Shown here one piece after another: positions 1 to 22,619 of a DNA stretch of 27,516 nucleotides. Made by a program: the position numbers and the translations under genes. The notes under the pieces are model-generated. The model did not search any database. It was not told the origin of the DNA and saw only the letters and a list, made by a program, of their open reading frames with translations. Position 1 is the first letter of the stretch; each line of letters opens with the position of its first letter. The DNA comes from a virus (lineage: Duplodnaviria > Heunggongvirae > Uroviricota > Caudoviricetes): IMG/VR virus record IMGVR_UViG_2563366923_000009, one strand, 5' to 3'.

Positions 1-1284
1 TTACAGACTTCTGGAAGGTTGCGCAGCTCTTACAACACGCGGTTGATCTTCCGCAGCGTCTTCCAGCGCACTTAAATCACGGTCTTTCACCTCTGGCATT
101 TTCAGCGCAGAGATTAAACCAATCACTGAATATGCCATGATCATAATGGCGATCGGATACCAGGATTCCGTCATGGTGCAGAAAATACCCGCCAGGATAG
201 GACCAAAACCGGAAGCGATAAGACCACCAATTTCTTTAGAAATAGCCATCCGGGTAAAGCGGTTTTTACAGCCGAACATTTCTGCCATGGTAATGTTTTC
301 CAGAGCAAATAATCCCAGCACCGCACAGTTATGAATCACAATCAGTGCAACCATAATGGTGCTCGGGGCATAGCTTTTATCTACAATGATAGAAAGCATT
401 GGCCATGCCAGCACAATCGCGGAGGTATTCATAATAATATACGGGATCCGGCGACCAATTTTATCGGATAACCAACCAAGGAACGGAATGGTCATAAAGC
501 CGAGAATCGAACTGATCATCAATGCATCTGTTGGAATTGCTTTGTTAAACAATAACGTCTGCACTAAATAGCCTGCAAGGAAAGTCTGAATTAACCCGGA
601 GTTACCCGCCTGACCAAAACGCAGCCCTGTTGCCAGCCAGAAGGATTTGCTCTGGAACATGCTACCAGCAGGTGCAGGTTTTGCTGTCGGTTGGTTACTG
701 TCGTTAACCTTCTCAAAGACCGGGCTTTCTTTCAGATTCATACGCAACCAGATAGCAAAGACCATCACGACAACGCTCGCCAGGAACGGTATACGCCATC
801 CCCACGCCAGCAGTTCCTCTTTACTGAGAATGAAGAACATAAAGGCCCAGATTGCCGTTGCGCTCAAGGTTCCGCAGTTAGTTCCCATAGCCACAAATGA
901 GGAGATAATTCCGCGCTTACCTTTTGGCGCATATTCCGCCAGCATCGTACCGGCACCGGAAATTTCCGCACCTGCACCCAACCCCTGAATAATACGCAAC
1001 GTCACCAGCAAGATGGGTGCAAAAACACCAATCTGTGCATAGGTCGGTAACACACCAATTAAGGTGGTACAGATCCCCATCATGGTGATGGTAATAAAGA
1101 GCACTTTTTTACGCCCTATTCTGTCGCCCATTTTGCCGAAAATAAATGCTCCGACAATACGCGCCACATAACCTGCACCGTAGGTTCCCATTGCCAGAAT
1201 TAACGCCATTGCCGTTGATGATTCAGGAAAAAATATTTCATGAAACACTAACGCTGCGCCGAGCGAATATAACTGGAAATCCAT
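1..1284 (-). CDS. ydfJ: MHS-family MFS transporter (ShiA/ProP/KgtP-like), apparently N-terminally truncated at the prophage junction
   Basis: 427-aa ORF with 11-12 hydrophobic segments and a GxxxDRxGRK loop; the N-terminus (MDFQLYSLGAALVF) begins inside what is TM1 in ShiA/ProP (WYDFxLYG), so about 25-30 N-terminal residues and the native promoter are missing. Confidence 0.85.
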   Translation of the reverse strand: MDFQLYSLGAALVFHEIFFPESSTAMALILAMGTYGAGYVARIVGAFIFGKMGDRIGRKKVLFITITMMGICTTLIGVLPTYAQIGVFAPILLVTLRIIQGLGAGAEISGAGTMLAEYAPKGKRGIISSFVAMGTNCGTLSATAIWAFMFFILSKEELLAWGWRIPFLASVVVMVFAIWLRMNLKESPVFEKVNDSNQPTAKPAPAGSMFQSKSFWLATGLRFGQAGNSGLIQTFLAGYLVQTLLFNKAIPTDALMISSILGFMTIPFLGWLSDKIGRRIPYIIMNTSAIVLAWPMLSIIVDKSYAPSTIMVALIVIHNCAVLGLFALENITMAEMFGCKNRFTRMAISKEIGGLIASGFGPILAGIFCTMTESWYPIAIMIMAYSVIGLISALKMPEVKDRDLSALEDAAEDQPRVVRAAQPSRSL

Positions 1285-1528
1285 AATTCACAGGTGTTTT
1301 TTCCCATCCTGTGGTTTCCTTGGCGTTTTCTAGGTTTTTTCAGATAGTTGCATTTTTTAAAAAGCATCCTAAGTTCGATCTCAGTGTCTATCTGGGGCCT
1401 ATTTCTGTCCCATATATGCCCCAAAAAAAACTCCCCAACAGATAAGTAGTTTTTTCATGGATTTATGCGTAAAATCAAGAACGGCTGGAAATCATTCAAT
1501 ACTCACACTATCGAAAAATTTACCAGCC

Positions 1529-1570
1529 AACCGCAGCACGTTCTTGCATAAGGCGTGTCTGCGGTTTTTC
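1529..1570 (+). terminator. Candidate intrinsic terminator (imperfect 12-bp stem with T-run) in the junction region
   Basis: aaccgcagcacg...cgtgtctgcggtt followed by tttttc. Confidence 0.35.
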
Positions 1571-2070
1571 AACTATTCAGATACATCACTCCCATCACAT
1601 TCATTCCTCCGCATCAAAGGCATATAGGCTATATCACCTTGATATTTTTCTTTTTCAGATAAAAACTGTTATCTATGTATACTTTTAAACCCAATCCGTG
1701 TAGAGTCTCTGCATAAGATAGTTTACAGTTGCCGCTTCAGCTTGCGCCATAAACCGCCTGATTTTTGCTGCCACCTGTTAGCATTCCTGTATACCTGAAA
1801 CGACAATGTTTATCTACGAACTTTAAGAACACCCAAGATAAAAATTGTCAACTATATCATATATAACACATTACTAATTCGAGGCTATATGAACAGCATA
1901 CTGATAATCACATCTCTCCTTATCATATTCAGCATTTTTAGTCATGCCCTAATAAAATTAGGGATTGGCATATCCAATAACCCAGACAAAACCGATGTAT
2001 AAGTCAACATATCCTGAATCAGACATACAATATCGCAATGAAAATCAATAATATTTTAAGGAATATCTTC

Positions 2071-2304
2071 ATGAAATCAAAAGACACCCTAAAGTGGTTC
2101 CCTGCGCAGCTTCCTGAAGTAAGAATTATCCTAGGGGATGCTGTAGTGGAAGTAGCAAAACAGGGAAGACCTATCAATACCAGAACATTGCTTGATTACA
2201 TTGAAGGAAACATAAAGAAAAAATCATGGCTGGATAACAAAGAATTATTACAAACAGCGATATCAGTTCTTAAAGACAACCAAAATTTAAATGGTAAAAT
2301 GTAA
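2071..2304 (+). CDS. ydfK: Small prophage protein of the YdfK/YnaE family (77 aa)
   Basis: ORF 2038..2304; the internal ATG at 2071 has an AAGGA Shine-Dalgarno 6 nt upstream; sequence MKSKDTLKWFPAQLPEV recalled as YdfK. Confidence 0.7.
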   Translation: MKSKDTLKWFPAQLPEVRIILGDAVVEVAKQGRPINTRTLLDYIEGNIKKKSWLDNKELLQTAISVLKDNQNLNGKM

Positions 2305-2620
2305 TATAATAAACTTACTTTTTTATCATTTTTCCACTTTAACAACATTTTGCTCCACTTTTCCACGACCAAACAACTTGAAATCTGGTTAAAATAACAC
2401 GCAACACTATTCTTCTTCCTTGAGTCCGCCCGGAACTCGAAAAACAAACCGAGTTAAAGCCATTTTTCACAAAATCGATTTTGGGTCTCACCAAAATTAC
2501 GGGGTTGCATACGCATTCGTTTATTTTCGAACGTGTACATACAAATATGCACAAAAATAATCATAATTATTTTCTGAGATGCATTATGATATGAACACCA
2601 ATTTCGTATAGAGTCTCACT

Positions 2621-3211
2621 ATGTCTCGAATTTTTGCTTACTGTCGGATATCAACGCTGGATCAGACCACCGAAAATCAACGCCGGGAAATCGAAAGTGC
2701 AGGTTTTAAAATCAAACCTCAGCAAATAATCGAAGAACACATTAGCGGCTCAGCAGCAACCAGTGAGCGTCCTGGTTTTAACCGGTTGCTTGCTCGCCTG
2801 AAATGTGGTGATCAATTGATTGTGACAAAACTGGATCGCCTTGGTTGTAATGCAATGGATATCAGGAAAACAGTGGAACAACTGACCGAAACAGGTATCA
2901 GAGTGCATTGCTTAGCATTGGGTGGCATTGACCTGACCAGTCCAACAGGAAAAATGATGATGCAAGTAATTTCAGCAGTCGCTGAATTTGAACGAGACCT
3001 TTTACTTGAACGCACTCATTCCGGGATAGTAAGAGCCCGCGGCGCAGGGAAACGTTTTGGTCGACCACCTGTGTTAAATGAAGAACAGAAACAGGTGGTA
3101 TTCGAACGAATTAAGTCAGGTGTAAGTATAAGTGCCATTGCCCGGGAATTCAAAACCTCGCGGCAAACCATTTTAAGAGCCAAAGCAAAACTTCAGACAC
3201 CTGACATATAA
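2621..3211 (+). CDS. pinQ: Serine recombinase, DNA invertase (Pin/Gin/Cin/Hin family)
   Basis: 196 aa; N-terminal catalytic motif [11 protein letters not shown] (active-site Ser), C-terminal HTH; typical invertase size. Confidence 0.9.
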
Positions 3212-3308
3212 AAAATAATCTCGGTGTGAGATGCTTTACGTCTTCCAAGCCCCCTTCCTTGCCGTAAATGGAAAGATACATCTAATTATAGAATTTATAT
3301 GTTTTACC

Positions 3309-3884
3309 CTACGGCAGTGCTGGCCATTCAATATCCTGTGCAGTTGACGTATCAACACGGTTCAGCAATACCCGATACTTTTTCCATGCTTCCAGCAACG
3401 AGATTTCTTCCTCCGTTGCAATTTCCAGATCTGCAGCATCCTGAAGCGGCGCAATATGCTCACTGGCTACCTGCATCAGGTTGTTTTTTGTTTCTTCCGC
3501 CTCCCGGATCCGGAACAGTTTTTCTGCTTCCGTATCCTTCACCCAGGCTGTGCCGTTCCACTTCTGAAACTCCCCTTCCGGCGATAACCAGGTAACATTT
3601 TCCGGTAACGGACCGAGTTCAGAAATAAATAACGCGTCGCCGGAAGCCACGTCATAAACCGTTTTACCCCGATGATCTTCAACGAGATGCCACGATGACT
3701 CATCACTGTTGAAAACAGCCACGAAGCCAGCCGGAATATCTGGCGGTGCAATATCGGTACTGTTTGCTGGCAGACCTGTATGAGGCGGAATATATGCATC
3801 ACCTTCACCAATAAATTCATTAGTTCCGGCCAGCAGATTATAAATTTTTATGGTCCGTGGTTGTTCACTCATTCTGAATGCCAT
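3309..3884 (-). CDS. tfaQ: Tail fiber assembly protein (Tfa)
   Basis: 191 aa, start overlaps the stop of the upstream stf-like ORF; Tfa-like sequence, directly 3' of the tail-fiber C-terminal domain. Confidence 0.85.
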
Positions 3885-4897
3885 TATGCAAGCCTCACAA
3901 TATAGTTAAATGCGATGTTTTTGACGGTGTTTTCCGCGTTACCAGCAGCGTTAACGGTGATGGTGTGTCCATGTGAACCAATCGCAACGGAGTGCGTATG
4001 AGCACCAATACCGACAGTATGCGCGTGTGCACCTGCAGATGCTGCTGTGCCGGACAGTGAGTGGCTATGATTACCATCTGTACTGGTATTAGCTAACCAC
4101 CCCGTAGACATACCTACTGAGCCTTGTACACCCCAGGTATTTTGACCTGAGCTTGTATAACCATATTGATAAGTATCTTTAAAAACACTGGGGTTAAATC
4201 GACGGCCATCTCTATGGCTGTGATTACCAGCTGCATTCGTGCTGCCACTTAAACTATGGGTATGCGCACCAGTGTTATTCGTGGATTTAGTGCCGTAATC
4301 AAACGACGATGTGGTTTTCGTCCCCAAATCCGTACTGGATGCGCTGGCGCTGTGGGTATGCGATTTAATGCCGTCCTGTTCCTGAGACAATACGGCCCGA
4401 CCACTGGCAGGTTTGCCCTTAATCGTCCAGCCACGCATATCCACCTCAACCGGATCGAAGGCTTCACCGGTCATGGTGTATTTGCCCTTAAGCACGGCAG
4501 AAACTGCCTGCATCTCTTCGACCTGAGCAATGGCCAGCTCTTCGTCACGCATGTTCTGCATGATGATGCGACGGCGGCGGTAAGCCGGGTCCGCCAGATT
4601 CTGCGGATCTTCATCCGGCAGGCGACGCAGGGTCATCTGCGGATTCACTTCATGCTTCGGCTTGACATATCCCGGCGTAAATTCAGAGGTGGAGCCGCCA
4701 CGGGAACGGATAACCTCACCGGAAACAATCGGCGAAACGTACAGCGCCATGTTTACCAGTCCCGGAATTTGTGAGAGATAGACTTTCTCCGTGGTGAAGG
4801 GATAGCTCTCACGGAAAAAGAGACGCAGAAACAGCGGATCAAACTTAAATTTCTGCTCATTTGCCGCCAGCAGCTGGGCGGTTGTGTACATCGACAT
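3884..4897 (-). CDS. stfQ: Chimeric ORF: lambda major capsid protein E N-terminal ~154 aa fused in frame to a side-tail-fiber C-terminal domain
   Basis: N-terminus [40 protein letters not shown]...[10 protein letters not shown] matches lambda gpE as recalled; from about nt 4435 the sequence becomes a Gly/Ser/Thr/His-rich HTHS/HSHS repeat domain ending [11 protein letters not shown], typical of Stf C-termini. Start taken at MSMYTT (4897). Confidence 0.75.
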
Positions 4898-4910
4898 AAA
4901 AAAATCCCGT

Positions 4911-4931
4911 AAAAAAAGCCGCACAGGCGGC
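4911..4931 (-). terminator. Hairpin plus T7 run between the Nu1-like gene and the E-stf start
   Basis: Minus strand gccgcctgtgcggc followed by ttttttt; sits immediately upstream of the ATG at 4897. Confidence 0.4.
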
Positions 4932-4933
4932 CT

Positions 4934-5470
4934 TTAGTGATGAAGGGTAAAGTTAAACGATGCTGTCAGTTCATCCAGCGCGGCTGCTTTGTTCATGGCT
5001 TTGATGATATCCCGTTTCAGGAAATCAACATGTCGGTTTTCCAGTTCCGGAAAACGCCGCTGCACCGACAGGGGGATCCCGTCGAGAATACTGGCAATTT
5101 CACCTGCGATCCGCGACAGCACGAAAGTACAGAATGCGGTTTCCACCACTTCAGCGGAGTCTCTGGCATTTTTCAGCTCCTGTGCGTCGGCCTGCGCACG
5201 CGTAAGTCGATGGTGTTCGTACTCAATAGTCCCTGGCTGGAGATCTGTCTCGCTGGCCCGCCGCAGTTCTTCAACTTCCCGGCGCAGCTTTTCGTTCTCA
5301 ATTTCAGCATCCCTTTCGGCATACCATCTTATAACGGCGGCAGAGTCATAAAGCACCTCATTACCCTTGCCACCGCCTCGCAGAACGGGCATTCCCTGTT
5401 CCTGCCAGTTCTGAATGGTACGGATACTCGCACCGAAAATGTCAGCCAGCTGCTTTTTGTTGACTTCCAT
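4934..5470 (-). CDS. nohQ: Terminase small subunit Nu1 homolog, C-terminally altered
   Basis: 178 aa, near-identical to lambda Nu1 (MEVNKKQLADIFGASIRTIQNWQEQGMPVLRGGGKGNEVLYDSAAV...) up to about residue 168, then a divergent tail TASFNFTLHH. Confidence 0.9.
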   Translation of the reverse strand: MEVNKKQLADIFGASIRTIQNWQEQGMPVLRGGGKGNEVLYDSAAVIRWYAERDAEIENEKLRREVEELRRASETDLQPGTIEYEHHRLTRAQADAQELKNARDSAEVVETAFCTFVLSRIAGEIASILDGIPLSVQRRFPELENRHVDFLKRDIIKAMNKAAALDELTASFNFTLHH

Positions 5471-5700
5471 TGTTCATTCCACGGCCAAAAACAGAGAAAG
5501 GAAACGACAGAGGCCCAAAAGTTCGTTTTCAGCACCTGTCGTTTCCTTTCTTTTTAGGGGGTATTTTAAATAAAAACATTAAGTTACGACGAAGAAGAAC
5601 GGAAACGCCTTAAACCGGAAAATTTTCATAAATAGCGAAAACCCGCGAGGTCGCCGCCCCGTAACCTGTCGGATCACCGGAAAGGACCCGTAAAGTGATA
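5471..5700 (-). other. Lambda-type cos site (cosB, cosN, cosQ region); cosN 12-nt cohesive end at 5648..5659
   Basis: Reverse complement of 5641..5670 reads GACAGGTTACG followed by GGGCGGCGACCT and CGCGGGTTTTCGCTATTTATGAAAATTTTCCGG, i.e. the lambda right-end/left-end junction as recalled, located directly upstream of the Nu1 start as in lambda. Confidence 0.85.
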
Positions 5701-5858
5701 ATGATTATCATCTACATATCACAACGTGCGTGGAGGCCATCAAACCACGTCAAATAATCAATTATGACGCAGGTATCGTATTAATTGATCTGCATCAACT
5801 TAACGTAAAAACAACTTCAGACAATACAAATCAGCGACACTGAATACGGGGCAACCTC

Positions 5859-6092
5859 ATGTCAACGAAGAACAGAACCCGCAGAACAACAACCCGCAAC
5901 ATCCGCTTTCCTAACCAAATGATTGAACAAATTAACATCGCTCTTGAGCAAAAAGGGTCCGGGAATTTCTCAGCCTGGGTCATTGAAGCCTGCCGCCGGA
6001 GACTGTGCTCAGAAAAAAGAGTTTCTTCTGAAGCAAACAAAGAAAAGAGTGACATTACTGAATTGCTCAGAAAACAGGTCAGACCAGATTGA
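5859..6092 (+). CDS. ynfO: Small basic prophage protein (77 aa)
   Basis: ORF with Arg/Thr-rich N-terminus; position between cos and ydfO matches Qin gene order as recalled. Confidence 0.55.
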   Translation: MSTKNRTRRTTTRNIRFPNQMIEQINIALEQKGSGNFSAWVIEACRRRLCSEKRVSSEANKEKSDITELLRKQVRPD

Positions 6093-6149
6093 AGCAATTT
6101 AGATAATCGTGCAGACTACGCCCCCTCATATCACATGGAAGGTTTATCT

Positions 6150-6509
6150 ATGGATCAGGTAGTCATTTTTAAACAAATATTTGATAAAGTTCGAAACGAT
6201 TTAAACTATCAATGGTTTTATTCTGAGCTAAAACGTCACAATGTCTCACATTACATTTACTATTTAGCCACAGAGAATGTTCATATTGTATTAAAAAATG
6301 ATAATACAGTGTTATTAAAGGGCCTAAAAAACATTGTGTCTGTCAAATTTTCAAAGGATAGGCATCTTATAGAAACGACCTCTAATAAGCTGAAATCCAG
6401 AGAGATCACATTTCAGGAATACAGAAGAAACCTTGCTAAAGCAGGAGTTTTTCGGTGGGTTACAAATATCCACGAACAAAAAAGATATTACTATACCTTT
6501 GATAATTAA
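6150..6509 (+). CDS. ydfO: DUF1398-family prophage protein
   Basis: ORF 6135..6509; the second ATG (6150) has a GGAAGG Shine-Dalgarno; recalled similarity to YdfO/YbcV-type proteins. Confidence 0.6.
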
Positions 6510-6711
6510 TTACTATTTACTGAAAGCATCCAGAAAACTACACAGATCTTACCACGCTAAACCATAACGTCCGGCTTCTCTCACTCCTGAGCCGGACTGC
6601 ATTGGTTTAATAAAAACCATCAACAATTGTGATTTAGATATTCGGAACCATTCAAATATAACAAAACCCCGTAAAAACGAGGTTTATGGATAAATTTTAT
6701 TATTGAATACA

Positions 6712-6885
6712 TCAGATTAAATTAATCTTGACATCATAGCTTTCAAGACCCGTCATTTTTTCCCGTGCGGTAAACTGAATACTGGTAACTTCTTTCCCGG
6801 TCTTTTTCTTAAGTTCAATAATTTTTTTTGTTATATATTCAGAAATATCTGCTTCTGCTTTTGTTTTTAAGTTTTCAATATTCAT
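6712..6885 (-). CDS. gnsB: GnsA/GnsB-family small protein (57 aa)
   Basis: Not in the ORF track (<60 aa); hand translation gives MNIENLKTKAEADISEYITKKIIELKKKTGKEVTSIQFTAREKMTGLESYDVKINLI, with an AGAGGAA Shine-Dalgarno upstream. Confidence 0.8.
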   Translation of the reverse strand: MNIENLKTKAEADISEYITKKIIELKKKTGKEVTSIQFTAREKMTGLESYDVKINLI

Positions 6886-7056
6886 CATTTCCTCTTTTAG
6901 TCTGTTATGACTTTCCAGTTACACAGTAAGTCGATTATATGGTGCAAACGTGTAAAAGATAAGATGAAACATCGCAATAATCAACATACGATAGTCTAAA
7001 TTTTACACAAACAGACAAAGAGAATTTTCCTGAATTATCAATGCAATAGCATCAAA

Positions 7057-7248
7057 TCAACTCAAGAGCCTTATTGCTGCTTCCAGAATTTCTTCTGAAG
7101 TAACATGTCGATCCGCGGCTACATAAATGACTTTATGATCTCCGGTCAGAGATGGAAACCCTGCGGCCATTACAGTAAGGTGTGTTTTTTCGCCATTTGG
7201 ATATTCACGCATGATGGTGTTAACTCCAGTCATCGCTGGCACTACCAC
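7057..7248 (-). CDS. ynfN: Small prophage protein, possibly the YnfN-like cold-shock-induced protein
   Basis: 63-aa ORF immediately downstream of cspI on the same strand; identity by position and recall only. Confidence 0.45.
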   Translation of the reverse strand: MVVPAMTGVNTIMREYPNGEKTHLTVMAAGFPSLTGDHKVIYVAADRHVTSEEILEAAIRLLS

Positions 7249-7557
7249 TGCTGGTTCAGAGTTAAAAAAACTATGATTTTTTTCATGATGTTACCGTAGT
7301 ATGTGAGTATCCATCGAATAGACACCAAGCAAAAAAGCTCCCGAAGGAGCCTTCATTTTCACTTTTTTAAATCCAACGACAGACGGCTGGCATTTAAGTA
7401 TTGTGAAATATTATCAAATGTAATCATCATTGATTTACAAAAGATACATTTTGCCCCGAAAGGATTCATGTCAGAAACATCAAAAGATGATGTTCTATAC
7501 TGGGAACCATGACAACACGGGCATCTAAAGTGAATATGGTTTGTAATATTGTCTACC

Positions 7558-7770
7558 TCAAAGCGCCACTACATGAACAGCGGCAGGACCTTTAGGTCCG
7601 TTCTCAATACCAAATTCAACTTCCTGATTCTCAGTTAATGTTTTGAAATCGTTGCTCTGAATTGCTGAGAAATGGACAAACACATCTTTGCTGCCATCTT
7701 TCGGCGTGATGAAACCAAAACCTTTTTCAGGGTTAAACCATTTCACTAAACCAGTCATTTTGTTAGACAT
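7558..7770 (-). CDS. cspI: Cold-shock protein (CspA family)
   Basis: 70 aa with [15 protein letters not shown] and VFVHFSAI motifs (RNP1/RNP2). Confidence 0.9.
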
Positions 7771-8132
7771 AATTATTACCTTTTGAAGAAATTAGCCCTT
7801 GGGCAGAATGGTCCGAAAAAAAATATCAGAGAGAAAAACCAACAAGGAAATCTCAAGAGGTACAAATAATAAAATTATAACAATGACTGCTTCAGATAAA
7901 TTTGTAACAAACCAGAACACCATTAACGCATGATTAACCACCCATAGCAAGGATTACTTTTGTAAAGAAAAACACAGCAATGAAAGAATAGCTTTATTTA
8001 TTAATAAAACGTGTCATTCTGATTAAGACCTTTTATCTTACCCTTAAGATTTCAGGAATTTTGGCTCATGGAAGAGTCCTTTTTATTTAAATTTTACATT
8101 CCGCGATGTAAATGTTCCGATTTAATATTACC

Positions 8133-9156
<1,024 letters not shown>

Positions 9157-9160
<4 letters not shown>

Positions 9161-9468
9161 AGATATTTATGATGAGGACGCTCGTGCTTATTGGCAGGAT
9201 TTTCAATCTTAAAGGAGTACTGATGCTGCAGATAAGACTCAACTTTTTCTGACAATTTTTCTGCTACTTCCAGGAAGACTTGCCGGACGCTCCTTCTGGC
9301 TGCTGCCTCATAAAACTCCAGCGCAGCTCCTTCAACACGGTCCATGGCGACATCCAGGTCAAAAATTTCACCGTCAAAGCGTTCTTTGTCCTGTAAGGCT
9401 ACAGTTACCGTAACTTTATTCTCAAAATTACGGACTCCTTTCACAACCAGTTCATAGTCTTGAGTCAT
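9157..9468 (-). CDS. ydfR: Small lysis-cassette-associated protein
   Basis: 103-aa ORF between the holin and the endolysin, overlapping the rrrQ start by 4 nt. Confidence 0.65.
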
Positions 9469-9472
9469 TGGA

Positions 9473-9688
9473 TTACTCTCCTCTCGCAGCCTTACGCCTG
9501 TCTTCTTTAATCTTGAAATAAAGATTTGTCAGATACGTCAGCAGGCCAAAAACCAGGCTACCCAGCACACCGATTGCAGCCCACTGTGACGGAGTTACTT
9601 TATCGAGTAACTGCAATGCCCAGAAACCAGCATTACCCGCCGATGTGCCATAGGCAACACCTGTTGTTAACTTATCCATTGATTTCAT
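9473..9688 (-). CDS. essQ: Class II holin (pinholin, S21-like) with dual-start motif
   Basis: 71 aa from [26 protein letters not shown]; two TM segments and a charged C-terminus RKAARGE; the Met-Lys-Ser-Met dual start is typical of holin/antiholin pairs. The ORF track shows a longer upstream extension that is unlikely to be used. Confidence 0.85.
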
Positions 9689-9907
9689 ATCCTCACCCCG
9701 ATGTACACGGATGGTGCAATATGTTTGAAAAGATCGGAGTCTACGGGGTAGTTTTGACAGCACACGTTGTTCTCAACGGCGCTAAAAAAACATACACATT
9801 AAAAATGTGGGTAATTATTTTGAAAGAAAGTCATATATAAAATAATAATACGAGAAATGTTTTCATATTTAGTGTACTGTATACGGCCATTTATACAGGA
9901 AAAGCCT

Positions 9908-10078
9908 ATGTCAGAACGTAAAAACTCAAAATCACGCCGTAATTATCTCGTTAAATGTTCCTGCCCAAACTGCACCCAAGAGTCAGAACACAGTTTTTCA
10001 AGAGTACAAAAAGGTGCCCTTTTGATCTGCCCTCATTGCAACAAAGTATTCCAGACAAATCTTAAAGCTGTAGCCTGA
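9908..10078 (+). CDS. ynfU: Small zinc-ribbon protein (CxxC...CxxC), 56 aa
   Basis: MSERKNSKSRRNYLVKCSCPNCTQESEHSFSRVQKGALLICPHCNKVF with two CxxC pairs; AGGAAAAG Shine-Dalgarno; the gene name is a recalled guess. Confidence 0.5.
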   Translation: MSERKNSKSRRNYLVKCSCPNCTQESEHSFSRVQKGALLICPHCNKVFQTNLKAVA

Positions 10079-10140
10079 TTGATTTTATTAGTAACAAGTA
10101 TTTTTTATATTTTAATAATATATTTAAAGCAGATAATAAA

Positions 10141-10160
10141 AAACCCGCCTGAGCGGGTTT
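10141..10160. terminator. GC hairpin flanked by A/T runs (likely bidirectional terminator)
   Basis: aaacccgcctgagcgggttt; T-rich on the minus-strand side. Confidence 0.45.
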
Positions 10161-10441
10161 GAGATTGTGGTGCTTTTTGTGGGAGTCATCCACTTACGCA
10201 CTTTGTTTTGCCATGCCAGCAGTTAGCTTCTGCTGTAAAACTATTCATGCAGCAAACCTGCACTTCACCACAATGGTTAGCATACTTTTCCTGATTAAGA
10301 TTTTGCCAAATATGCTAGCCATTGTTTCATGTATTGGACCTCCTTACTTTTTATTAAAGAGATCCAATATTCACTACTCTGTCCGTATCTCTACTCAGGC
10401 ATCAGCCTTCTTCGTTATCGTATACAGACGAGCGATGAATT

Positions 10442-10657
10442 TTAATCAGTAATGATGACATTTGCTGCTGCAGGACCTTTAGCACCACTCTCTATAGAGA
10501 AGGTAACCTTTTGACCTTCAAATAAGGTTCGATAATTATCATTCTGAATCGCAGAAAAATGCACAAACACATCTTTACTACCATCAACAGGAGAAATAAA
10601 GCCGAAACCTTTATCAGCGTTAAACCATTTTACTAAACCAGTCATTTTATTTGACAT
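10442..10657 (-). CDS. cspB: Cold-shock protein (CspA family)
   Basis: 71 aa, [23 protein letters not shown]...VFVHFSAIQ. Confidence 0.9.
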
Positions 10658-10957
10658 TCTACATTCCTTAACTTGAGCCTTTCGGCATAAATGGTTTGCA
10701 TAACAGAAACGACTTCGTACTTAATTGGAGAGACTCAAAGAAGGAATAAGTGAATAACACCTGAAATGAGAACTGCTTTAGTAAACTACTTCGTATATCG
10801 TCTGTTCTTCAAACCGACGCAATCATTAACGCATAGTTGAACATATGAAGCAATGTTTATTTTAGACATCCAGCCATCTTCAACCCCATCAAAAAACTAT
10901 AGCTTTCTTCAGGAACGTGTGTATAGTGCGCCAAGTTATCAGTATTAAGGAATTTTT

Positions 10958-11170
10958 TTGTCCCGTAAAATGACAGGAATTGTCAAAACCTTTGACGGCA
11001 AAAGCGGCAAGGGTCTTATCACCCCATCCGATGGTCGTATCGATGTCCAGCTTCATGTTTCAGCGCTCAATCTCCGCGATGCAGAAGAAATTACCACCGG
11101 ATTACGCGTGGAATTTTGCCGGATAAATGGTCTGCGTGGCCCTTCAGCTGCCAATGTTTACCTTTCATGA
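10958..11170 (+). CDS. cspF: Cold-shock-domain protein, divergent member
   Basis: 70 aa, [23 protein letters not shown]; cold-shock-domain length and spacing but degenerate RNP motifs; divergent from cspB. Confidence 0.85.
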
Positions 11171-11460
11171 GCTATATTAAAGCTTTAATTTCAGGCCCCA
11201 TCGGATCACACATGGAGAGTTTTTATGAATAACCCCGTCTGTCTTGATGACTGGTTGATTGGCTTTAAAAGCTTATGCTGTACTTTGGCCGTAATAGCTC
11301 TGCTAATAATATAATAAGCAGACTCATTGTGTTTAGGGACATTGTACTGGAAGAAAACATTTTAAACATCAGGCAAATAACCAAGTCACCAGCTAAATAA
11401 TAAGTTGACAGACATGAGTCCCGGGATGAGATTCAACATTACCATTGCCCCATTTAAAGC

Positions 11461-11490
11461 ACAAAACCCGCTCATCAGCGGGTTTTCTAC
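11461..11490. terminator. Bidirectional intrinsic terminator (candidate tR' for the late promoter and terminator of cspF)
   Basis: aaacccgctcatcagcgggttt with T-runs on both sides. Confidence 0.55.
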
Positions 11491-11530
11491 TTTTTCTTAA
11501 CGTCGGGTATACAAAGCCCATCGTTGAAAA

Positions 11531-11559
11531 AATTTTATCCATATTTTTTGAAAAATGCA
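11531..11559 (-). promoter_or_regulatory. Candidate late promoter (pR'-like) immediately downstream of the Q gene
   Basis: Minus strand TTTGCA / TTGCAT, 17-18 nt spacer, TAAAAT; lies between the Q stop (11592) and the hairpin at 11461..11482. Confidence 0.3.
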
Positions 11560-11591
11560 AACATCATGTCGCCATCTTCAGCAAAAATCAT

Positions 11592-12344
11592 TTATCTCGT
11601 CACCTTCCTCAATTGCGCTTCCGCGTATGCTTCTTCCTGCCAGCACTTTGTTACCAGTTTACCAATGACGTCCGCATACCCCTTATACCACTGATAATCG
11701 GTCAGGTCTGGTACCAGCTTCTGGACATGACGTCGTGCCAGCGTGGTCGGTAAACGACTAAACCGGTTTCCATTACAACGCCCACAAATCTTATATACCG
11801 GTACGCCATGAAACCGGGTTCTTTTTTCATCCAGAACAATCCCTTTACCCTTACACCCTCTGCACGCTGTGCTGGCTTCGCCCTTACCATGGCAATGCTG
11901 ACATAGTTCCTTCACCCATTCTTCCTTGATTACAGATTCCCCGCGTCTGTAGTGTTTCACCACTTCGCGCAATACATTATAAAATCCCGTACCTGAACAA
12001 TGCTCACAGCGAGCCTTACTTGCCGCAGACCTGGAGTAATCAGCAAAGGCAAAACTCACGAGGTAAGGAATAATCTGTAACCGGATTTCTTCACTCAATT
12101 TGTTCAATGTCGGGTTATCCAGTGCCATCGCGTAATTTAGCAGGCCTTCAATCGCAAACTGAGGGTCCTGAACACCAACTTTTGCCAGAAATAAGGCCAA
12201 CCCAAGTGGTGCTTTCGACTGCACCATCCCCTGCGCTGCCATTACATCCGTAATTGTTAAACAACCGGTGCCTGTCGCTGGAGCGTCATCGCTCAATTTT
12301 GGAGATTTTGGGGAGTAATATTTTGGTAAGGCTTCAAGGTTCAT
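11592..12344 (-). CDS. quuQ: Late-gene antiterminator Q
   Basis: About 250 aa with multiple Cys pairs (CEHCSGTG, CQHCHGKG, CRGCKGKG, CGRCNG) forming zinc-finger-like clusters; located directly upstream of the lysis and moron block; start taken at MNLEAL. Confidence 0.8.
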   Translation of the reverse strand: MNLEALPKYYSPKSPKLSDDAPATGTGCLTITDVMAAQGMVQSKAPLGLALFLAKVGVQDPQFAIEGLLNYAMALDNPTLNKLSEEIRLQIIPYLVSFAFADYSRSAASKARCEHCSGTGFYNVLREVVKHYRRGESVIKEEWVKELCQHCHGKGEASTACRGCKGKGIVLDEKRTRFHGVPVYKICGRCNGNRFSRLPTTLARRHVQKLVPDLTDYQWYKGYADVIGKLVTKCWQEEAYAEAQLRKVTR

Positions 12345-12357
12345 GCTCGTTCTCCAC

Positions 12358-13446
12358 TTACGCCAGTACGCCAATTGCCAGCGCGCGATCGATAAAACGA
12401 AATATCAGCTCCAGTTGGGAGCCATACTTATCTTCAAATGCCACTGTATCCGTATGCAGCTCGTTGTGATGCTTTCTGCACAAAGGCAACACAAAGAGAT
12501 CATGTGCTTTTGTTCCCATTCCGCCCTGCCCGTGACCAATCAGATGATGCGGATCGTCGGCTGGCATACCGCAGCAAGCACACGGCTGTGTCTTAACCCA
12601 ACGTGTGTATTTCTCCTTAACCCAGCGGCGACGTTTAGGCAGCTTCATGAAAGATTCCGGAGACTCTGGATCAACGGTGATGCTTACCACCGTCTTTTCC
12701 TGTGGTGATTTTTGTTGCTGGTGGGCGTAAGGCAACGGTGCAAGATTTTTTGTGCGTTGTTTCAATATGCTGGTGGCGGTCTGCTCTCCCGGTACGATGT
12801 CGCTTTCGCGGTACACCGAGCAGATTTTTTCCGCTGGTAATCCCAGCGAACGACGCGATACAGCCTCAGGTAGTGCATCCACCACCTGATTGCAGACCGC
12901 CCACCAGGATAATTCAGCCAAAGATAATTCCCGCTCCTGCGTACCGCTTATTGCGTGACGGATGACGTCAATCACCCATGCTGTCAGATTTTGTTGAGCA
13001 AGCAGCTCCAGTGATTCCGATGTCTGGTCACGCAGTTGGTTGTCGCAGTGCCAGCACAACACCATTGCGCCGGTACCATAACGGTGAATGACTGTTTCAG
13101 TGTGATGGTAATCGCCATTAGGCCACTGGCAGGATGTAACATGACGTAATAGCCAGTCGGACAATGCGCCAACGCCGCCAGCAGCACGAATCACCCGTTC
13201 GTTACTAAAAAACGGCAGCAATGTTTTGTCTTCCGCCAGCGGCTGGCGAACGGCAGGAACGACTCCGGATGGCAGATTACGCATGCTTTTTGGTTCCGGT
13301 TCCACCAGCACTCGAGGATTATGAAATATCTGTATGGATTCACGGCCCGGCTTAAGGACCACCAGCCCAAGCTCAGGCACCAGAACAGGTCTAAGTAATA
13401 CCCGCACGTTACCTCCAGAACCGTTGCAGGAAAGTGCGGGACGCAC
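12358..13446 (-). CDS. ydfU: DUF968-type protein with C-terminal HNH-like Cys/His motif (nin-region protein)
   Basis: C-terminus CACCGMPADDPHHLIGHGQGGMGTKAHDLFVLPLCRKHHNELH; start ambiguous (ATG at 13446 or GTG at 13407, just after the stop of the upstream 92-aa ORF). Confidence 0.7.
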   Translation of the reverse strand: MRPALSCNGSGGNVRVLLRPVLVPELGLVVLKPGRESIQIFHNPRVLVEPEPKSMRNLPSGVVPAVRQPLAEDKTLLPFFSNERVIRAAGGVGALSDWLLRHVTSCQWPNGDYHHTETVIHRYGTGAMVLCWHCDNQLRDQTSESLELLAQQNLTAWVIDVIRHAISGTQERELSLAELSWWAVCNQVVDALPEAVSRRSLGLPAEKICSVYRESDIVPGEQTATSILKQRTKNLAPLPYAHQQQKSPQEKTVVSITVDPESPESFMKLPKRRRWVKEKYTRWVKTQPCACCGMPADDPHHLIGHGQGGMGTKAHDLFVLPLCRKHHNELHTDTVAFEDKYGSQLELIFRFIDRALAIGVLA

Positions 13447-13687
13447 GTGGTGGGCGTTCGGAATAAGGCAGCCTGACAGAGATTATCCAGTGCCGATAGT
13501 CGAGACTGAGAGCTTTCTTAACCTCGAACCCGCGCCTGCGGTAAGAATGAATCAGCCATTCGGCCTGTTCTGCAGTGCATGGAGGGTGCTGGAACCATTC
13601 AGACTTGAATGCGTGAGAATACCGCCCGTGCGTGCAGGCAAGAACGGGCGAATTATCAGAATTGTAATATTTTGCGTTGCGTGCCAT
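13409..13687 (-). CDS. Hypothetical protein (92 aa), possibly a frame-shifted N-terminal part of the downstream gene
   Basis: ORF with protein-like composition ending 1 nt before a possible GTG start of ydfU. Confidence 0.35.
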   Translation of the reverse strand: MARNAKYYNSDNSPVLACTHGRYSHAFKSEWFQHPPCTAEQAEWLIHSYRRRGFEVKKALSLDYRHWIISVRLPYSERPPRASRTFLQRFWR

Positions 13688-13753
13688 CGGTTTTCTCCGG
13701 TGGCACGGTGTTACTCAGCGGGAGTTCAGCCCCGCGCAAGATTGTAGATGAGT

Positions 13754-14005
13754 TTATTCTCCTGAAAAAGCAGAAAAGCCAGCTTTTATTCCGATCTCTT
13801 TCAATGCCTGTAATGAAGTGACAAACTCACCTTCGCGCAAGATAAATCCGTCCGTGACCCGAGCATCCACAAAATTAATTAACGCAGCCCCATTCTTTCG
13901 CAAACACATAATGCGGTAATGACTAACAAGATTTCCATTTTCAACGCACACAGCATAGAGGCCATCTTCACAAAAAATTTTACGCAGTTCTTCGATGTTC
14001 ATCAT
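13754..14005 (-). CDS. rem: Small prophage protein (83 aa)
   Basis: 83-aa ORF between ydfU and hokD; length and position match Qin rem as recalled. Confidence 0.5.
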   Translation of the reverse strand: MMNIEELRKIFCEDGLYAVCVENGNLVSHYRIMCLRKNGAALINFVDARVTDGFILREGEFVTSLQALKEIGIKAGFSAFSGE

Positions 14006-14120
14006 CAGAATCCTTCCGGATAATTAGCTCTCCCCTTTAAGGGACCATCCCTCTTATCCCTGCGCGCTACTTAAGTATTTTTGATTCTATTCCGGCACCG
14101 TCCAGAACTTCAAACGCGTT

Positions 14121-14153
14121 GAAAATAAAAACAAAAACCCGCCGAAGCGGGTT
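14121..14153 (-). terminator. Intrinsic terminator of the relB-relE-hokD operon
   Basis: Minus strand aacccgcttcggcgggtt followed by tttgtttttatttt, about 70 nt downstream of hokD. Confidence 0.65.
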
Positions 14154-14221
14154 AAGTGCGGGTGCGTTGAGGATGCCTGCCACATCAGAGGTGGCGAGGG
14201 ATTTCTCCCCCGCCGGGTCTC

Positions 14222-14377
14222 TTACTCCTCAGGTTCGTAAGCTGTGAAGACAGCGACCTCCGTCTGGCCGGTTCGGATTCGTACCTCGCAGAGGTCTTTC
14301 CTCGTTACCAGTGCCGTCACTATGACGGTTAAACAGATGACGATCAGGGCGATTAACATCGCCTTTTGCTGCTTCAT
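14222..14377 (-). CDS. hokD: Hok-family membrane toxin (51 aa)
   Basis: Not in the ORF track; hand translation MKQQKAMLIALIVICLTVIVTALVTRKDLCEVRIRTGQTEVAVFTAYEPEE, the canonical Hok TM helix plus periplasmic tail. Confidence 0.85.
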   Translation of the reverse strand: MKQQKAMLIALIVICLTVIVTALVTRKDLCEVRIRTGQTEVAVFTAYEPEE

Positions 14378-14448
14378 AGCCTGCTTCTCCTGTCAACGCA
14401 AAGCAGAAGTGTCACCTTCGGTGCGAAACAGAGATGTCATGCTTTGGT

Positions 14449-14736
14449 TCAGAGAATGCGTTTGACCGCCTCGCTATATACTTCCGAGCGTTCTCTTTTC
14501 CCAACAGAAATCACGAAAACGACAACTTTCTCGTCTATAACCTGGTATACAAGGCGATAGCCTGAAGACCGGAGCTTAATCTTGTAACAATCAGGCATAC
14601 CACGGAGCTTGTTTGCTTCAATCCGGGGTGACTCAAGTACTTCAACCAGCTTCTTTTTCAACTGTTCACGTACCGTCGAGCCCAGCTTTCGCCATTCCTT
14701 TAGTGCCCGCTCGTCAAAATCCAGAAAATACGCCAT
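14449..14736 (-). CDS. relE: RelE mRNA interferase toxin
   Basis: 95 aa, MAYFLDFDERALKEWRKLG...RLVYQVIDEKVVVFVISVGKRERSEVY. Confidence 0.95.
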   Translation of the reverse strand: MAYFLDFDERALKEWRKLGSTVREQLKKKLVEVLESPRIEANKLRGMPDCYKIKLRSSGYRLVYQVIDEKVVVFVISVGKRERSEVYSEAVKRIL

Positions 14737-14975
14737 CAGAGTTCATCCAGCGTCACACGTACTGGCTTAGGATTACGAAGCCGTTCTTTCACTATCTCCA
14801 CAAGTTCAGCATCTTCATCACTCAGGAGTGTCTGTTTGAACGGCAAGCGTTCATTGTCAGCGATATACTCGAGCATGAGACGAAGCGCTTCAGAAGGAGT
14901 TACACCCATTTTTTCAAGCGCGGCGTAAGAACGCGCTTTAAGTTCATCGTCAATACGCAGGTTAATGCTACCCAT
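14736..14975 (-). CDS. relB: RelB antitoxin (RHH)
   Basis: 79 aa, MGSINLRIDDELKARSYAALEKMGVTPSEALRLMLEYIADNERLPF; stop overlaps the relE start. Confidence 0.95.
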   Translation of the reverse strand: MGSINLRIDDELKARSYAALEKMGVTPSEALRLMLEYIADNERLPFKQTLLSDEDAELVEIVKERLRNPKPVRVTLDEL

Positions 14976-14986
14976 GTCTTACACCT

Positions 14987-15012
14987 CTTGTAATTACAAA
15001 TGTCATTACAAG
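14987..15012 (-). promoter_or_regulatory. relBE operator/promoter (relO-like palindromes)
   Basis: cttgtaattacaaatgtcattacaag, two overlapping TTGTAAT/ATTACAA inverted repeats 12 nt upstream of the relB ATG. Confidence 0.7.
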
Positions 15013-15305
15013 TATCGCACTACAACATGCTTAGGGCAAGTCACGAAGGAAGTCAGAAAGTAGTCGTAAGAACGGTGATCACTGTCCGCTTTGTGCCAGG
15101 AGCAGCCATTGCTAAGTCCATCCTGTATTGTGCAGGTCAGCTCGTTTTTAAAGAGTCCGGCCATCATCTTACTGGTACAGACACCATATACTTTGTGACG
15201 GTCAGGCTACATATGCACAACTCAACTTATTCATCTATTTTTTGCTTTAGCATGTCAGTGTTGCTTTCTCGTCGGCGGGTGAGCGGTGACCTGACCTGTC
15301 GATAA
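15000..15305 (+). CDS. Questionable 101-aa ORF (ydfV-like by length and position)
   Basis: ORF-track ORF overlapping the relBE operator region; atypical composition; retained only because a 101-aa ydfV is recalled at this position in Qin. Confidence 0.25.
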   Translation: MSLQVSHYNMLRASHEGSQKVVVRTVITVRFVPGAAIAKSILYCAGQLVFKESGHHLTGTDTIYFVTVRLHMHNSTYSSIFCFSMSVLLSRRRVSGDLTCR

Positions 15306-15457
15306 AGGAACGTAACACGTTTTATGCAACACCCGCATGCGGCAGAAAATTATTGCCGAACGTTTACCCCTGTCAACAAGCTTTACTTTCTGAGGCGCGC
15401 CAGCCCGCGAGGAAAACAATCTGAACATCAAACAATTAATGACACAAGAAATACGAT

Positions 15458-15484
15458 TAAAGATTTTTTTGTGCATGCCGATAG
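15458..15484 (+). promoter_or_regulatory. Sigma-28 (FliA) class 3 flagellar promoter
   Basis: TAAAGATT, 11-nt spacer, GCCGATAG versus consensus TAAAGTTT-N11-GCCGATAA, about 25 nt upstream of flxA. Confidence 0.7.
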
Positions 15485-15507
15485 TGCTTTTTTAAAAGGA
15501 GAAATCT

Positions 15508-15840
15508 ATGTCTGTCACAATTCAGGGAAATACCTCAACCGTTATTTCAAACAACTCCGCCCCGGAAGGAACATCAGAAATAGCCAAAATCACAAGACAA
15601 ATTCAGGTGCTGACTGAAAAGCTTGGGAAAATCTCATCGGAAGAGGGGATGACGACACAGCAGAAAAAAGAAATGGCTGCATTGGTACAGAAGCAAATTG
15701 AAAGCCTCTGGGCTCAACTGGAGCAGTTGTTAAGGCAGCAGGCAGAGAAAAAGAATGAAGACGCGACAGTTCAGCCTGATAAAAAAGAAGAGAAAAAAGA
15801 CGATACAAATACCGCTGGCACCATTGATATTTACGTCTAA
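15508..15840 (+). CDS. flxA: FlxA, FliA-regulated protein
   Basis: 110 aa, MSVTIQGNTSTVISNNSAPEG...QIQVLTEKL...; coiled-coil, Lys/Glu-rich C-terminus. Confidence 0.9.
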   Translation: MSVTIQGNTSTVISNNSAPEGTSEIAKITRQIQVLTEKLGKISSEEGMTTQQKKEMAALVQKQIESLWAQLEQLLRQQAEKKNEDATVQPDKKEEKKDDTNTAGTIDIYV

Positions 15841-15855
15841 GTGACAGCCGTATTG

Positions 15856-15879
15856 TGGCCCTCATCGGGCCACTTTTCG
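15856..15879 (+). terminator. Intrinsic terminator of flxA
   Basis: gtggccctcatcgggccac followed by ttttc. Confidence 0.65.
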
Positions 15880-16127
15880 CCATCAGCCTTTTCTTTAAAG
15901 ACATATTATCTTTGTATCATTTCTGATAGTTAACATTACAAGATATAAGTAATGGACGCACTCCCAATTAGTCTATTTAAATCGCCACGAGTTTAACTGA
16001 CAACCCATGATCAATTATGAATTGCAACTATTTCTGTAGTCACTTTTGTGGGGACAGTCCACAAAACTGCCAACTTCCGCTTCTTGCTCTTAGCGGACAT
16101 TAGCATAGGCTATTTACCATAACGCCT

Positions 16128-17770: not shown

Positions 17771-17924
17771 TTAACTGGGGCTTTTCTCTATCTGCCGTTG
17801 GTGTCCATGCCCGAGGCAGATAGCCTCAAGCACCCGCAGTCATTCTACTTAACTAAGATTTCCCCGCAAACCGTTTTTGTCCAGCACAGTAAATATCCAA
17901 CTAAACCAATGGAGTTCGCTGTAT

Positions 17925-19613: not shown

Positions 19614-19906
19614 TGCGCCACGTCCTGAAAATTACCCTGATAGAAAGCCAGTATGCGCTGCATAACTTCGCTCTTCCGGCACTCGCGACAGATTATGTTT
19701 AGGCGACTGTCGTAGCGACGTATTTCTCCGTCAGGTGATGACCAGATAAGGTCCGGATCAACCACAGCAGGTTTCTTCACCTTTGCCCTCGAGAGTTTTT
19801 TGCGGGCGTTTTGCCAGTCCTTACGCGCCTGTTCAGAGGGGAATAACCCGTAGCCGGAGTTGTATACATCGCCACTGGCTACCAGCTCTCTGGCAAGAAC
19901 GCTCAT
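19610..19906 (-). CDS. Hypothetical protein (98 aa), translationally coupled to neighbours
   Basis: Start overlaps the upstream stop by 1 nt; its stop overlaps the methyltransferase-like start. Confidence 0.45.
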   Translation of the reverse strand: MSVLARELVASGDVYNSGYGLFPSEQARKDWQNARKKLSRAKVKKPAVVDPDLIWSSPDGEIRRYDSRLNIICRECRKSEVMQRILAFYQGNFQDVAQ

Positions 19907-20190
19907 CAGATAGCCTCCATAATCGCAGGCACTAGCGCCGTGAACTTTTCACGCTTATCCCTGGTGTCGATAGCCTTCCAGCGTTCGAATATCTTCACTC
20001 GATTAACACCAAGCGCTCGCTGATCAACCGCGCCACCTTCATCTGTGACACGCTGAACATCGATGTTCGGGCGCTCTTTCAAAGCCCAGAATGCTTCAGT
20101 GATTAATATCGTCGCCTGCTCCTGTGTCATTCCTGGTCGACATATCCAGGCATCCAGAGCCTCACGAGCCTGTTCAGGAGTGATTTTCAT
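19906..20190 (-). CDS. Hypothetical protein (94 aa) immediately downstream of dicC
   Basis: ORF overlaps the dicC 3' end; occupies the position of cII/replication genes in lambdoid phages; no recognisable family. Confidence 0.45.
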   Translation of the reverse strand: MKITPEQAREALDAWICRPGMTQEQATILITEAFWALKERPNIDVQRVTDEGGAVDQRALGVNRVKIFERWKAIDTRDKREKFTALVPAIMEAI

Positions 20191-22536: not shown

Positions 22537-22619
22537 AACAGTTCCGTAATAAATATCCGGTTTCGGTGATGCTGCCAACTTACTGATTTAGTGTATGATG
22601 GTGTTTTTGAGGTGCTCCA

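Follow-up and report, generated by a model that had tools for sequence, protein, structure and literature searches.

A lambda-type cos site and a clipped nu1 gene in a Qin-type prophage of Escherichia coli: a probable relic, and a recurrent deletion end point

The virus record IMGVR_UViG_2563366923_000009 of IMG/VR, a stretch of 27,516 nucleotides that is called the window throughout this text, is, as judged from its sequence, the Qin cryptic prophage of Escherichia coli, integrated in ydfJ. Between positions 4,934 and 5,700 it carries a lambda-type cos site next to a shortened gene for a homologue of lambda gpNu1, the small terminase subunit (TerS), here called Nu1'. This segment is quite probably the packaging-initiation end of a decaying Qin-type lambdoid prophage, and thus a relic and not an adapted mobility device. 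Its cos site, given the state of its subsites, is probably still cut in trans by a lambda-type terminase, and by analogy with another prophage the outcome of such cutting is probably recombination rather than transfer. The presence of cos and a Nu1 homologue (nohA) in Qin is already known and is part of the K-12 reference annotation. While the relic as such is of little importance, the end point at which Nu1 has been clipped recurs in many other prophages, and this is the one thing that deserves follow-up.

The prophage and its deletions

The window runs from the stop codon of the truncated ydfJ to the stop codon of the integrase gene. Positions 4966-16461 (11.5 kb) are 99.9% identical to the Qin prophage of K-12, and the gene order, which is that of MG1655 and TOK-001, matches Qin (pinQ-tfaQ...nohA-cos-ynfO-ydfO...lysis-Q...relBE-hokD...dicC/dicA-dicF-dicB). 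The features that define the prophage end and the remains of the virion genes are as follows; deletion junctions are written with a slash between the two lambda positions, or the position and the gene, that they bring together.

1276..1286, no strand given: attachment (att) core GAAATCCATAA, the prophage end at the truncated ydfJ junction; the same 11-mer flanks K-12 Qin at its annotated ends
3309..3884, minus strand: tfaQ, an intact tail-fibre assembly gene of 191 amino acids (PF02413)
3884..4897, minus strand: E'(1-154)::Stf'(C-terminal ~190 amino acids), an in-frame fusion (PF03864 on residues 14-161; Phage_fiber repeat)
4898..4965, minus strand: last 13 nucleotides of gene D and the D-E intergenic region, within a 530-bp segment of 99.8% identity to lambda 6067-6596
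4965..4966, minus strand: deletion junction lambda 695/6067, without microhomology
4934..5470, minus strand: nu1' (nohA-type), 178 amino acids, lambda gpNu1 1-168 followed by TASFNFTLHH (Pfam PF07471)

Two internal deletions have emptied the head and tail cluster, one of lambda 696-6066 and the other from lambda 6597 into the middle of stf. The first one, of 5,371 bp, cost nu1 its 3′ end and also removed A, W, B, C, Nu3 and most of D; because it joins lambda 695 directly to lambda 6067, 13 nucleotides before the D stop codon, Nu1' has acquired a novel tail. The divergence that the original prediction had seen in the last ten or so residues of Nu1 is accounted for, as the reading frame consists of Nu1 1-168 with five substitutions (K48R, Q71R, A75T, R86H, L132I) and 10 unrelated residues, which stand in for the last 13 residues of lambda Nu1, the end of its tail for binding the large terminase subunit (TerL). 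What is left of capsid gene E are 154 codons (lambda 6135-6596, 99.8% identical), joined to stf at 4436-4441 inside a GATATG microhomology. It had also been claimed that the element has lost all virion genes. This is correct in the sense that no complete capsid, tail or large-terminase gene is present, but the E'::Stf' fusion and the intact tfaQ, next to which pinQ follows, persist.

Nu1 is composed of a domain for DNA binding of the winged helix-turn-helix (wHTH) type, an oligomerisation domain and, at the C-terminus, a tail to which TerL binds (PMC9026076). Nu1' keeps the first two domains, with residues 1-47 identical to lambda (including the recognition helix at 17-24, the wing at 31-39 and the dimer contacts at 11-13, 43 and 47), and lacks the end of the tail. 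Since gene A is absent as well, Nu1' cannot form a terminase within the element. Three of the substitutions (K48R, A75T, L132I) are found in viable phages, and two (Q71R, R86H) are private to the window lineage. Compared with its closest relatives, the window Nu1' has accumulated two non-synonymous and no synonymous changes, which suggests relaxed rather than purifying selection.

The reading as a decay intermediate, which the original prediction had offered as its alternative, is favoured by sister copies at the same site, each with different deletion junctions. More specifically, Qin copies in ydfJ range from a near-complete virion module in S51 (Nu1 through I kept) and MS 21-1 (Nu1 through FI kept) to the minimal form of K-12. 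Different junctions are found in TOK-001 (lambda 1-2268/stf), S3 (lambda 1-955/stf), K-12 itself and BS-01 (lambda 1-719/stf), 21EVA (lambda 1-695/4241-6595/stf) and ZYB62 (lambda 1-583/J). The window arrangement is one more member of this series. In one piece, Nu1/D was found in none of 5,426 complete E. coli genomes (the best match covered 86% in 3 pieces), and the exact Nu1' protein occurs in 61 blocks of draft and SRA assemblies, every one of them at the ydfJ locus; two of the loci that were fetched are 100% identical to the window across 11-15 kb.

The cos site

The lambda-type cos is complete and occupies positions 5495-5689 on the minus strand. The 12-nucleotide cohesive-end sequence GGGCGGCGACCT lies exactly where cosN had been placed originally (minus strand, 5659..5648), and this is its sole exact copy in the window. 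To the left of the nick, positions 5660-5905 are 100% identical to lambda 48257-48502 over 246 bp, and in a longer alignment (5660-6021 vs lambda 48141-48502) identity is 98.3%. To the right, positions 4966-5659 match lambda 1-695 at 97.4%, with 17 mismatches and one gap. The resemblance of the cos/nu1 segment to lambda is far above chance (megablast E = 0).

The subsites of cos were mapped by the definitions of the Feiss laboratory, i.e. about 22 bp for cosN, lambda 18-50 for I2 and 50-65 for R3 (PMC4856287, PMC9026076). All of them lie on the minus strand.

5683..5689, minus strand: cosQ (GGGTCCT; lambda 48473-48479 in the Feiss-laboratory literature), the packaging-termination signal, in a lambda-identical flank
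5643..5664, minus strand: cosN, the nicking site of about 22 bp, identical to lambda 48498-17
5610..5642, minus strand: I2 (lambda 18-50), the bent spacer that separates cosN from cosB, lambda-identical
5595..5610, minus strand: R3 (lambda 50-65, AGGCGTTTCCGTTCTT), the critical site for Nu1 binding, lambda-identical; coordinates from PMC9026076
5552..5594, minus strand: I1 (lambda 66-108), the segment with the IHF site between R3 and R2; three substitutions
5536..5551, minus strand: R2 (lambda 109-124, AGAAAGGAAACGACAG), inverted relative to R3 and R1, lambda-identical
5495..5510, minus strand: R1 (lambda 151-166, CTGTCGTTTCCTTTCT), lambda-identical

The minimal functional cos is lambda 48446-182, about 240 bp, which contains cosQ as a conserved 7-bp site (PMC4856287, PMC4669245) and is enough in cis for recognition by a helper (PMC4856287, PMC6739421). 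Within it, I2 is essential and its spacing critical (PMC4856287). The alignment to lambda cos that had been proposed as a check supports the description of the right end and cosB as lambda-like, and all mismatches fall outside the cosN nicking site and the R sites; calling the site identical to lambda was nevertheless an overstatement, as there are eight differences from lambda within the 120-bp cosB. Within lambda 1-190 these are seven substitutions (73, 102, 105, 134, 139, 145, 176) and a 1-bp deletion (138), all in I1, in the R2-R1 spacer or past R1. The first 72 positions of lambda are matched without any change or indel, so that the cosN-R3 spacing is the same as in lambda. The changes in I1 are A73G (5587), T102C (5558) and G105A (5555); the R2-R1 spacer has three substitutions and the deletion, making it 1 bp shorter than in lambda, and the same spacer variants are present in viable phages.

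These differences could be read as the mark of a dead site, in which the changes in the IHF segment and the shortened R2-R1 spacer abolish the assembly of terminase and leave cos inert. The density of eight changes in 120 bp would fit, as would the absence of G105A from all viable phages compared. However, in an alignment of cos with five lambda-like phages grown on MG1655, ECOR13 or a different E. coli host, each of the changes other than G105A, the 1-bp deletion included, turned up in at least one phage (A73G and T102C are shared with PhiR26_1, PhiR49_1 and PhiR34_1), and these seven are represented in phages propagated on MG1655 or ECOR13. The most sensitive parts of the site (R3, the cosN-R3 spacing and I2) are unchanged, and lambda still grows without IHF, at about 30% yield (PMC4856287). 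We therefore regard an inert cos as unlikely. R2 is invariant across nine Qin copies, and base pairs 55-63 of R3 are unchanged in the window; a G54A change in R3 is present in the K-12 Qin copy and also in the viable phage PhiR42_1.

Predicted cutting and recombination

Because all functionally defined subsites look intact, a terminase of lambda specificity should recognise and cut this cos. Nicks would be expected between 5660 and 5659 on the top strand and between 5648 and 5647 on the bottom strand. In the proposed sequence of events, a superinfecting or co-resident lambda-like phage would supply the terminase, which together with IHF would bind R3-I1-R2 and nick cosN, leaving a double-strand break with 12-nucleotide cohesive ends in the chromosome. 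The terminase would stay on the Nu1 side, with packaging directed from cosN through cosB to nu1, i.e. towards lower window coordinates. If a prohead were engaged, Nu1', E'::stf', tfaQ and pinQ would be reeled in and followed, after 4.4 kb, by host DNA (ydfJ, ydfI and beyond). A second cos for termination would never be met, and no transmissible particle of the element would result; lambda terminase requires a downstream cosQ-cosN to finish, and otherwise translocation does not arrest (PMC4856287). Lateral transduction is not performed by cos phages. The unprotected end on the cosQ side would be recombinogenic, so that the relic may serve as a hot spot of exchange with an incoming lambdoid phage.

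This expectation is drawn from the cos region of the DLP12 prophage, where lambda recombinants are 100-fold commoner than at other prophage homologies and half of the junctions lie at cos (PMC3945230). In another precedent, passive prophage DNA that lies between two chromosomal cos sites is packaged by a helper (PMC4669245). The sequences around cosN are consistent with a similar history. In about 80 bp on each side, compared in nine copies from the Qin locus and two from the DLP12 locus, there are two sharply different haplotypes on the left, distinguished by 11 linked sites between -78 and -16, and several on the right. The lambda-type left haplotype is shared by the window, K-12 Qin, S3, MS 21-1 and the DLP12-locus copies. 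This switch of haplotypes suggests repeated recombination at or near cos. No additional purifying selection on cos was seen, its subsites being no less polymorphic than nu1 in this small sample of nine Qin copies. In nature, the relic is probably a terminase-cuttable site that promotes recombination between the cryptic prophage and lambda-like phages, and thus one route to mosaicism.

Alternative explanations

The original prediction held that the element could be packaged in trans by a lambdoid helper in the manner of cos-type satellites, and its premise that int/xis, an immunity switch, Q and lysis genes are kept is confirmed in that all of these are intact open reading frames (ORFs). On SOS induction, or when a helper infects, such a helper-dependent mobile element would be excised by the Int and Xis that it encodes, and would be packaged and transferred through the shared cos. 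Recognition and cutting of cos appear feasible from the sequence, as detailed above. In favour of this idea, a plasmid with a cloned lambda cos is transferred by lambda or phi80 (PMC6739421), and the Sp4 prophage of strain Sakai, whose cos site is identical to that of Sp14, is packaged, probably via the Sp14 terminase (PMC2669165). It is in the later steps that the idea fails here, on size, replication, gene content and orientation. The second att core lies 38 bp beyond the int stop codon in TOK-001, hence just outside the window, which ends at that stop, and the spacing of the two cores gives an element of about 26.3 kb, or 54% of lambda, and a dimer of 52.6 kb, or about 108%. Lambda, according to the work of Feiss and colleagues in 1977/1979, reportedly packages efficiently at about 78-105% of its genome length; monomer and dimer are both outside this range, and no whole multiple of about 26.3 kb fills the lambda capsid, as would be expected of a phage-inducible chromosomal island (PICI). 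With the replication module deleted, no concatemer is expected. Own int and xis ORFs, which satellites have, are present, but an autonomous replication module is not, and neither the annotation transferred from K-12 and TOK-001 nor the scanned ORFs include rpp, a sid/psu-like or other gene for packaging redirection or interference, alpA, a primase gene or a capsid-size gene; cosB is of the helper type and not distinct. From the integrated state, packaging that starts at cos exits the element into ydfJ after 4.4 kb. Finally, the exact arrangement is found with identical flanks at the ydfJ locus alone, indicating vertical inheritance, and the sister copies vary by deletions, not by moves to new sites. 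Taken together, we consider a working satellite highly improbable.

A domesticated anti-phage function is also very unlikely. In this case Nu1(1-168) would bind cosB and dimerise with incoming TerS but fail to recruit TerL, in an Rpp-like interference with packaging of the lambda type, and the chromosomal cos might be a decoy. The preserved residues 1-47, with their recognition helix, wing and dimer contacts, are compatible with such a role, and so are the poor TerL binding of TerS without its C-terminus (PMC9026076), the example of the PICI Rpp proteins (TerS-like wHTH proteins that have no TerL-binding tail and block helper packaging) and the recurrence of truncation at residues 168-170 in about 30 independent junctions. 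Set against this, only 13 residues of the putative TerL-binding tail have been lost, nu1' lies in the Q-dependent late operon, presumably silent in a repressed prophage, the ratio of two non-synonymous to no synonymous changes suggests relaxed selection, and the agreement of the junctions to the nucleotide speaks for a mutational hot spot and against selection. Residues 1-55 of Nu1' match the PADLOC model mad1 of the MADS system (E = 9e-12), but assignment to a defence system on this basis was rejected, as the match probably reflects no more than similarity of the wHTH fold.

The interpretation as a decaying relic has difficulties of its own. Int, xis and dicA/dicC are intact in the window, unlike in K-12, and excision is therefore possible. 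The defective Sp4 of Sakai, with its disrupted nu1, is packaged by the terminase of a neighbour (PMC2669165). In a comparison of 12 sequences, G105A is found in the window lineage alone; it lies 4 bp from R2, inside the IHF-site segment. Lastly, the recurrence of the Nu1 clip point with nucleotide precision implies that decay is not purely random, and it leaves room for selection on Nu1' or cos.

A recurrent clip point in nu1

The left end of the window junction, lambda 695/696 (...GAACTGA^TACC; CTGATACC), lies 14-16 bp upstream of the gpA start codon and just upstream of the gpA ribosome-binding site. The same lambda-695 end is shared to the nucleotide by copies with different right partners, namely lambda 4241 (B) in 21EVA, lambda 4883 (C) in BS74R-D and, as a third, a tail-fibre position in a metagenome contig. 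A search of a large protein collection with the 178-residue Nu1' yielded dozens of fused or truncated Nu1 proteins of E. coli, and junctions at residues 168-170 (lambda nucleotides 695-697) make up about 30 of the 39 distinct types among residues 165-181. The protein listing was ranked by similarity to the query, and breakpoints well upstream of residue 165 are consequently under-sampled; because this under-sampling lies upstream of residue 165, the peak within residues 165-181 is not a product of the ranking. The clip point is represented at loci L013, L014, L021, L028, L030, L033, L034, L035 and L037-L039 and in proteins P0002-P0063.

The right partners of the clip point comprise B, C, D, E, FI, U, V, I, J, lom, stf, tfa, an integrase gene and a neighbouring immunity region, and many of the resulting tails are out of frame. 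In the DNA, nu1 is kept up to ...CTGA or ...CTGATA, and there is a microhomology of 0-6 nucleotides that is often GATA. Such junctions are found in prophages of the Qin and DLP12 loci and also in others. An exact-pattern scan for lambda-695 junctions found none in IMG/VR, a single genuine new junction (L021) besides four chance matches in JGI metagenomes, and only two chance matches, both in Rhodobacteraceae, in GTDB genomes.

Other end points are reused as well. Capsid gene E contains a second fixed left end, at lambda 6594-6596 (...GAGGTGGATA^TG), which has at least five partners, the E'::stf' junction of the window among them (window 4436-4441; L013 9589, L014 4267, L015 4975; P0021, P0037). 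On the right side, the stf end point TGATA^TGCGTGG is used both in the window, from E, and in TOK-001, from A (lambda 2268). Many junctions have GATA microhomology, and most are in frame. In strain S3, the stf end point (ACCGCGCTGACAG) is as in K-12, combined with another left end (lambda 955).

Several candidate causes were tried and rejected. For a DNA hairpin, z-scores are about 0. Group II intron homing at nu1 was discarded, as MS 21-1 has its intron inside an IS3 of the tail region, and an insertion sequence (IS) at the clip point was discarded, as there are no IS-derived tails or 169-residue truncations among the protein matches. The closest approach to Chi is GCTGGATG, with two mismatches; a pseudo-R site 50 bp downstream of the clip point matches 4 of 9 contact bases; and there is no dyad symmetry as would be expected of a site for a serine recombinase (Pin). 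An integrase island at the L033 junction proved to be a capsid-encoding satellite in gene E, i.e. just another deletion partner. As a separate observation, the prophage of E. coli WP8-S17-ESBL-12 (L036 5104-13621) harbours a capsid-encoding, satellite-like island in a lambda-like gene E, which is cut after 246 bp. This island has genes for an integrase, for AlpA-like HTH, TIR-domain and Icd-like proteins, and for a primase, SSB, a major capsid protein and a head decoration protein; a truncated copy is present at L033 3500-5300, and of the 5,426 complete genomes, 293 have the int-HTH-TIR part.

It is possible, if doubtful at present, that the clip point is a site-specific deletion hot spot of lambda-like prophages, which implies a directed break or recombination and/or Rpp-like selection on Nu1. 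The former would be a yet unrecognised one-sided break or recombination activity that disables terminase in resident prophages; the latter would act on a TerL-blind, Rpp-like Nu1 that is kept beside an intact cos. If this is a true hot spot, prophage decay is partly directed, and the clip point offers a handle on how bacteria or rival elements may disarm a resident terminase while sparing cos and the DNA-binding part of TerS.

Further features of the element

The integrase (431 amino acids; Arm-DNA-bind_2, Phage_integrase) and xis (DUF1233) are predicted to be intact from their reading frames, and dicA/dicC, Q and the lysis genes are likewise intact ORFs. In the replication region, 1.35 kb of TOK-001, S51 and MS 21-1 are absent (window 19906-20190 vs L001 26430-27776), which encode a 321-residue ydaU-like protein and part of YdaT; what is left are a truncated DUF977 gene, methyltransferase fragments and an ISNCY transposase. 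The latter (16277-17590, 437 amino acids) is intact in the window and truncated or interrupted in the sister copies.

Searches with Rfam detected a sok antitoxin RNA at 17664-17835 (minus strand), which adjoins the ISNCY transposase gene and lies away from hokD, DicF at 21934-21985 (plus strand), an IS009 RNA inside tfaQ at 3343-3541 (minus strand) and two cspA-type thermoregulator leaders (cspI, cspB) at 7531-7916 and 10426-10818 (both minus strand). DicF, the leaders and a sok RNA are in line with what Qin would be expected to have. Between ydfD and the exonuclease gene, some 770 bp (22564-23333) are without a counterpart in the TOK-001 alignment and are matched only in part in K-12 (ydfE region).

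Comparison with known systems

The nearest known system is nohA-cos of K-12 Qin (b1548; Qin 1,632,277-1,652,745), which shares with the window the ydfJ site, the att core, the gene order, a lambda-type cos and a Nu1 homologue that is altered at its C-terminus. It differs in having a single junction (lambda 719/stf), a NohA of 189 amino acids and an A(3 amino acids)::Stf fusion annotated as stfQ, whereas the window has 695/6067 together with 6596/stf and retains an E fragment. The cos sites of the two copies are distinguished by three positions. Int, xis and the large exonuclease gene, which are intact in the window, are pseudogenes or absent in K-12, and, compared with K-12, the window copy also keeps an intact ISNCY transposase. 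As regards stfQ itself (b1547; L007 4886-5848), its annotated start codon is that of lambda gene A (lambda 711), and the gene is an in-frame A(3 codons)::Stf' fusion made by the lambda 719/stf deletion.

In DLP12, nohD-cos similarly represents a lambda-like cos and nu1 in a defective prophage, and the DLP12 nu1 works in lambda (PMC3945230). That prophage is located in the argU region and keeps a full-length Nu1 and part of A, and the experiments concern DLP12 and not the window allele.

Trans-packaging of a defective lambdoid prophage via a shared cos, which is the idea of the original prediction, has already been published for Sp4 of O157 Sakai, which, like the window element, has no working terminase; its cos is identical to that of a co-resident prophage, and that of the window is close to lambda's. 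The nu1 gene of Sp4 is disrupted by ISEc8, and its DNA was found in particles, packaged probably by the Sp14 terminase (PMC2669165). In contrast to the window element, which is half-sized and without a replication module, Sp4 is full-sized and is amplified by the regional replication of a neighbouring prophage.

The cos-type PICIs (EcCICFT073 and relatives) are also integrated, have int and a cosQ-cosN close to that of lambda, and depend on the TerS, TerL and virions of a helper. They differ in that a lambda cosB is absent from them, TerS is retargeted by Rpp, induction makes them replicate, and alpA and genes of the primase type are present, and the window element has none of these features; judged by replication, packaging redirection and size, it neither is a PICI nor plausibly works like one. 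Cosmids and other cos plasmids have in common with it that a cos of about 240 bp suffices in cis for a helper, but they replicate and form multimers of packageable length, whereas the window element does not replicate.

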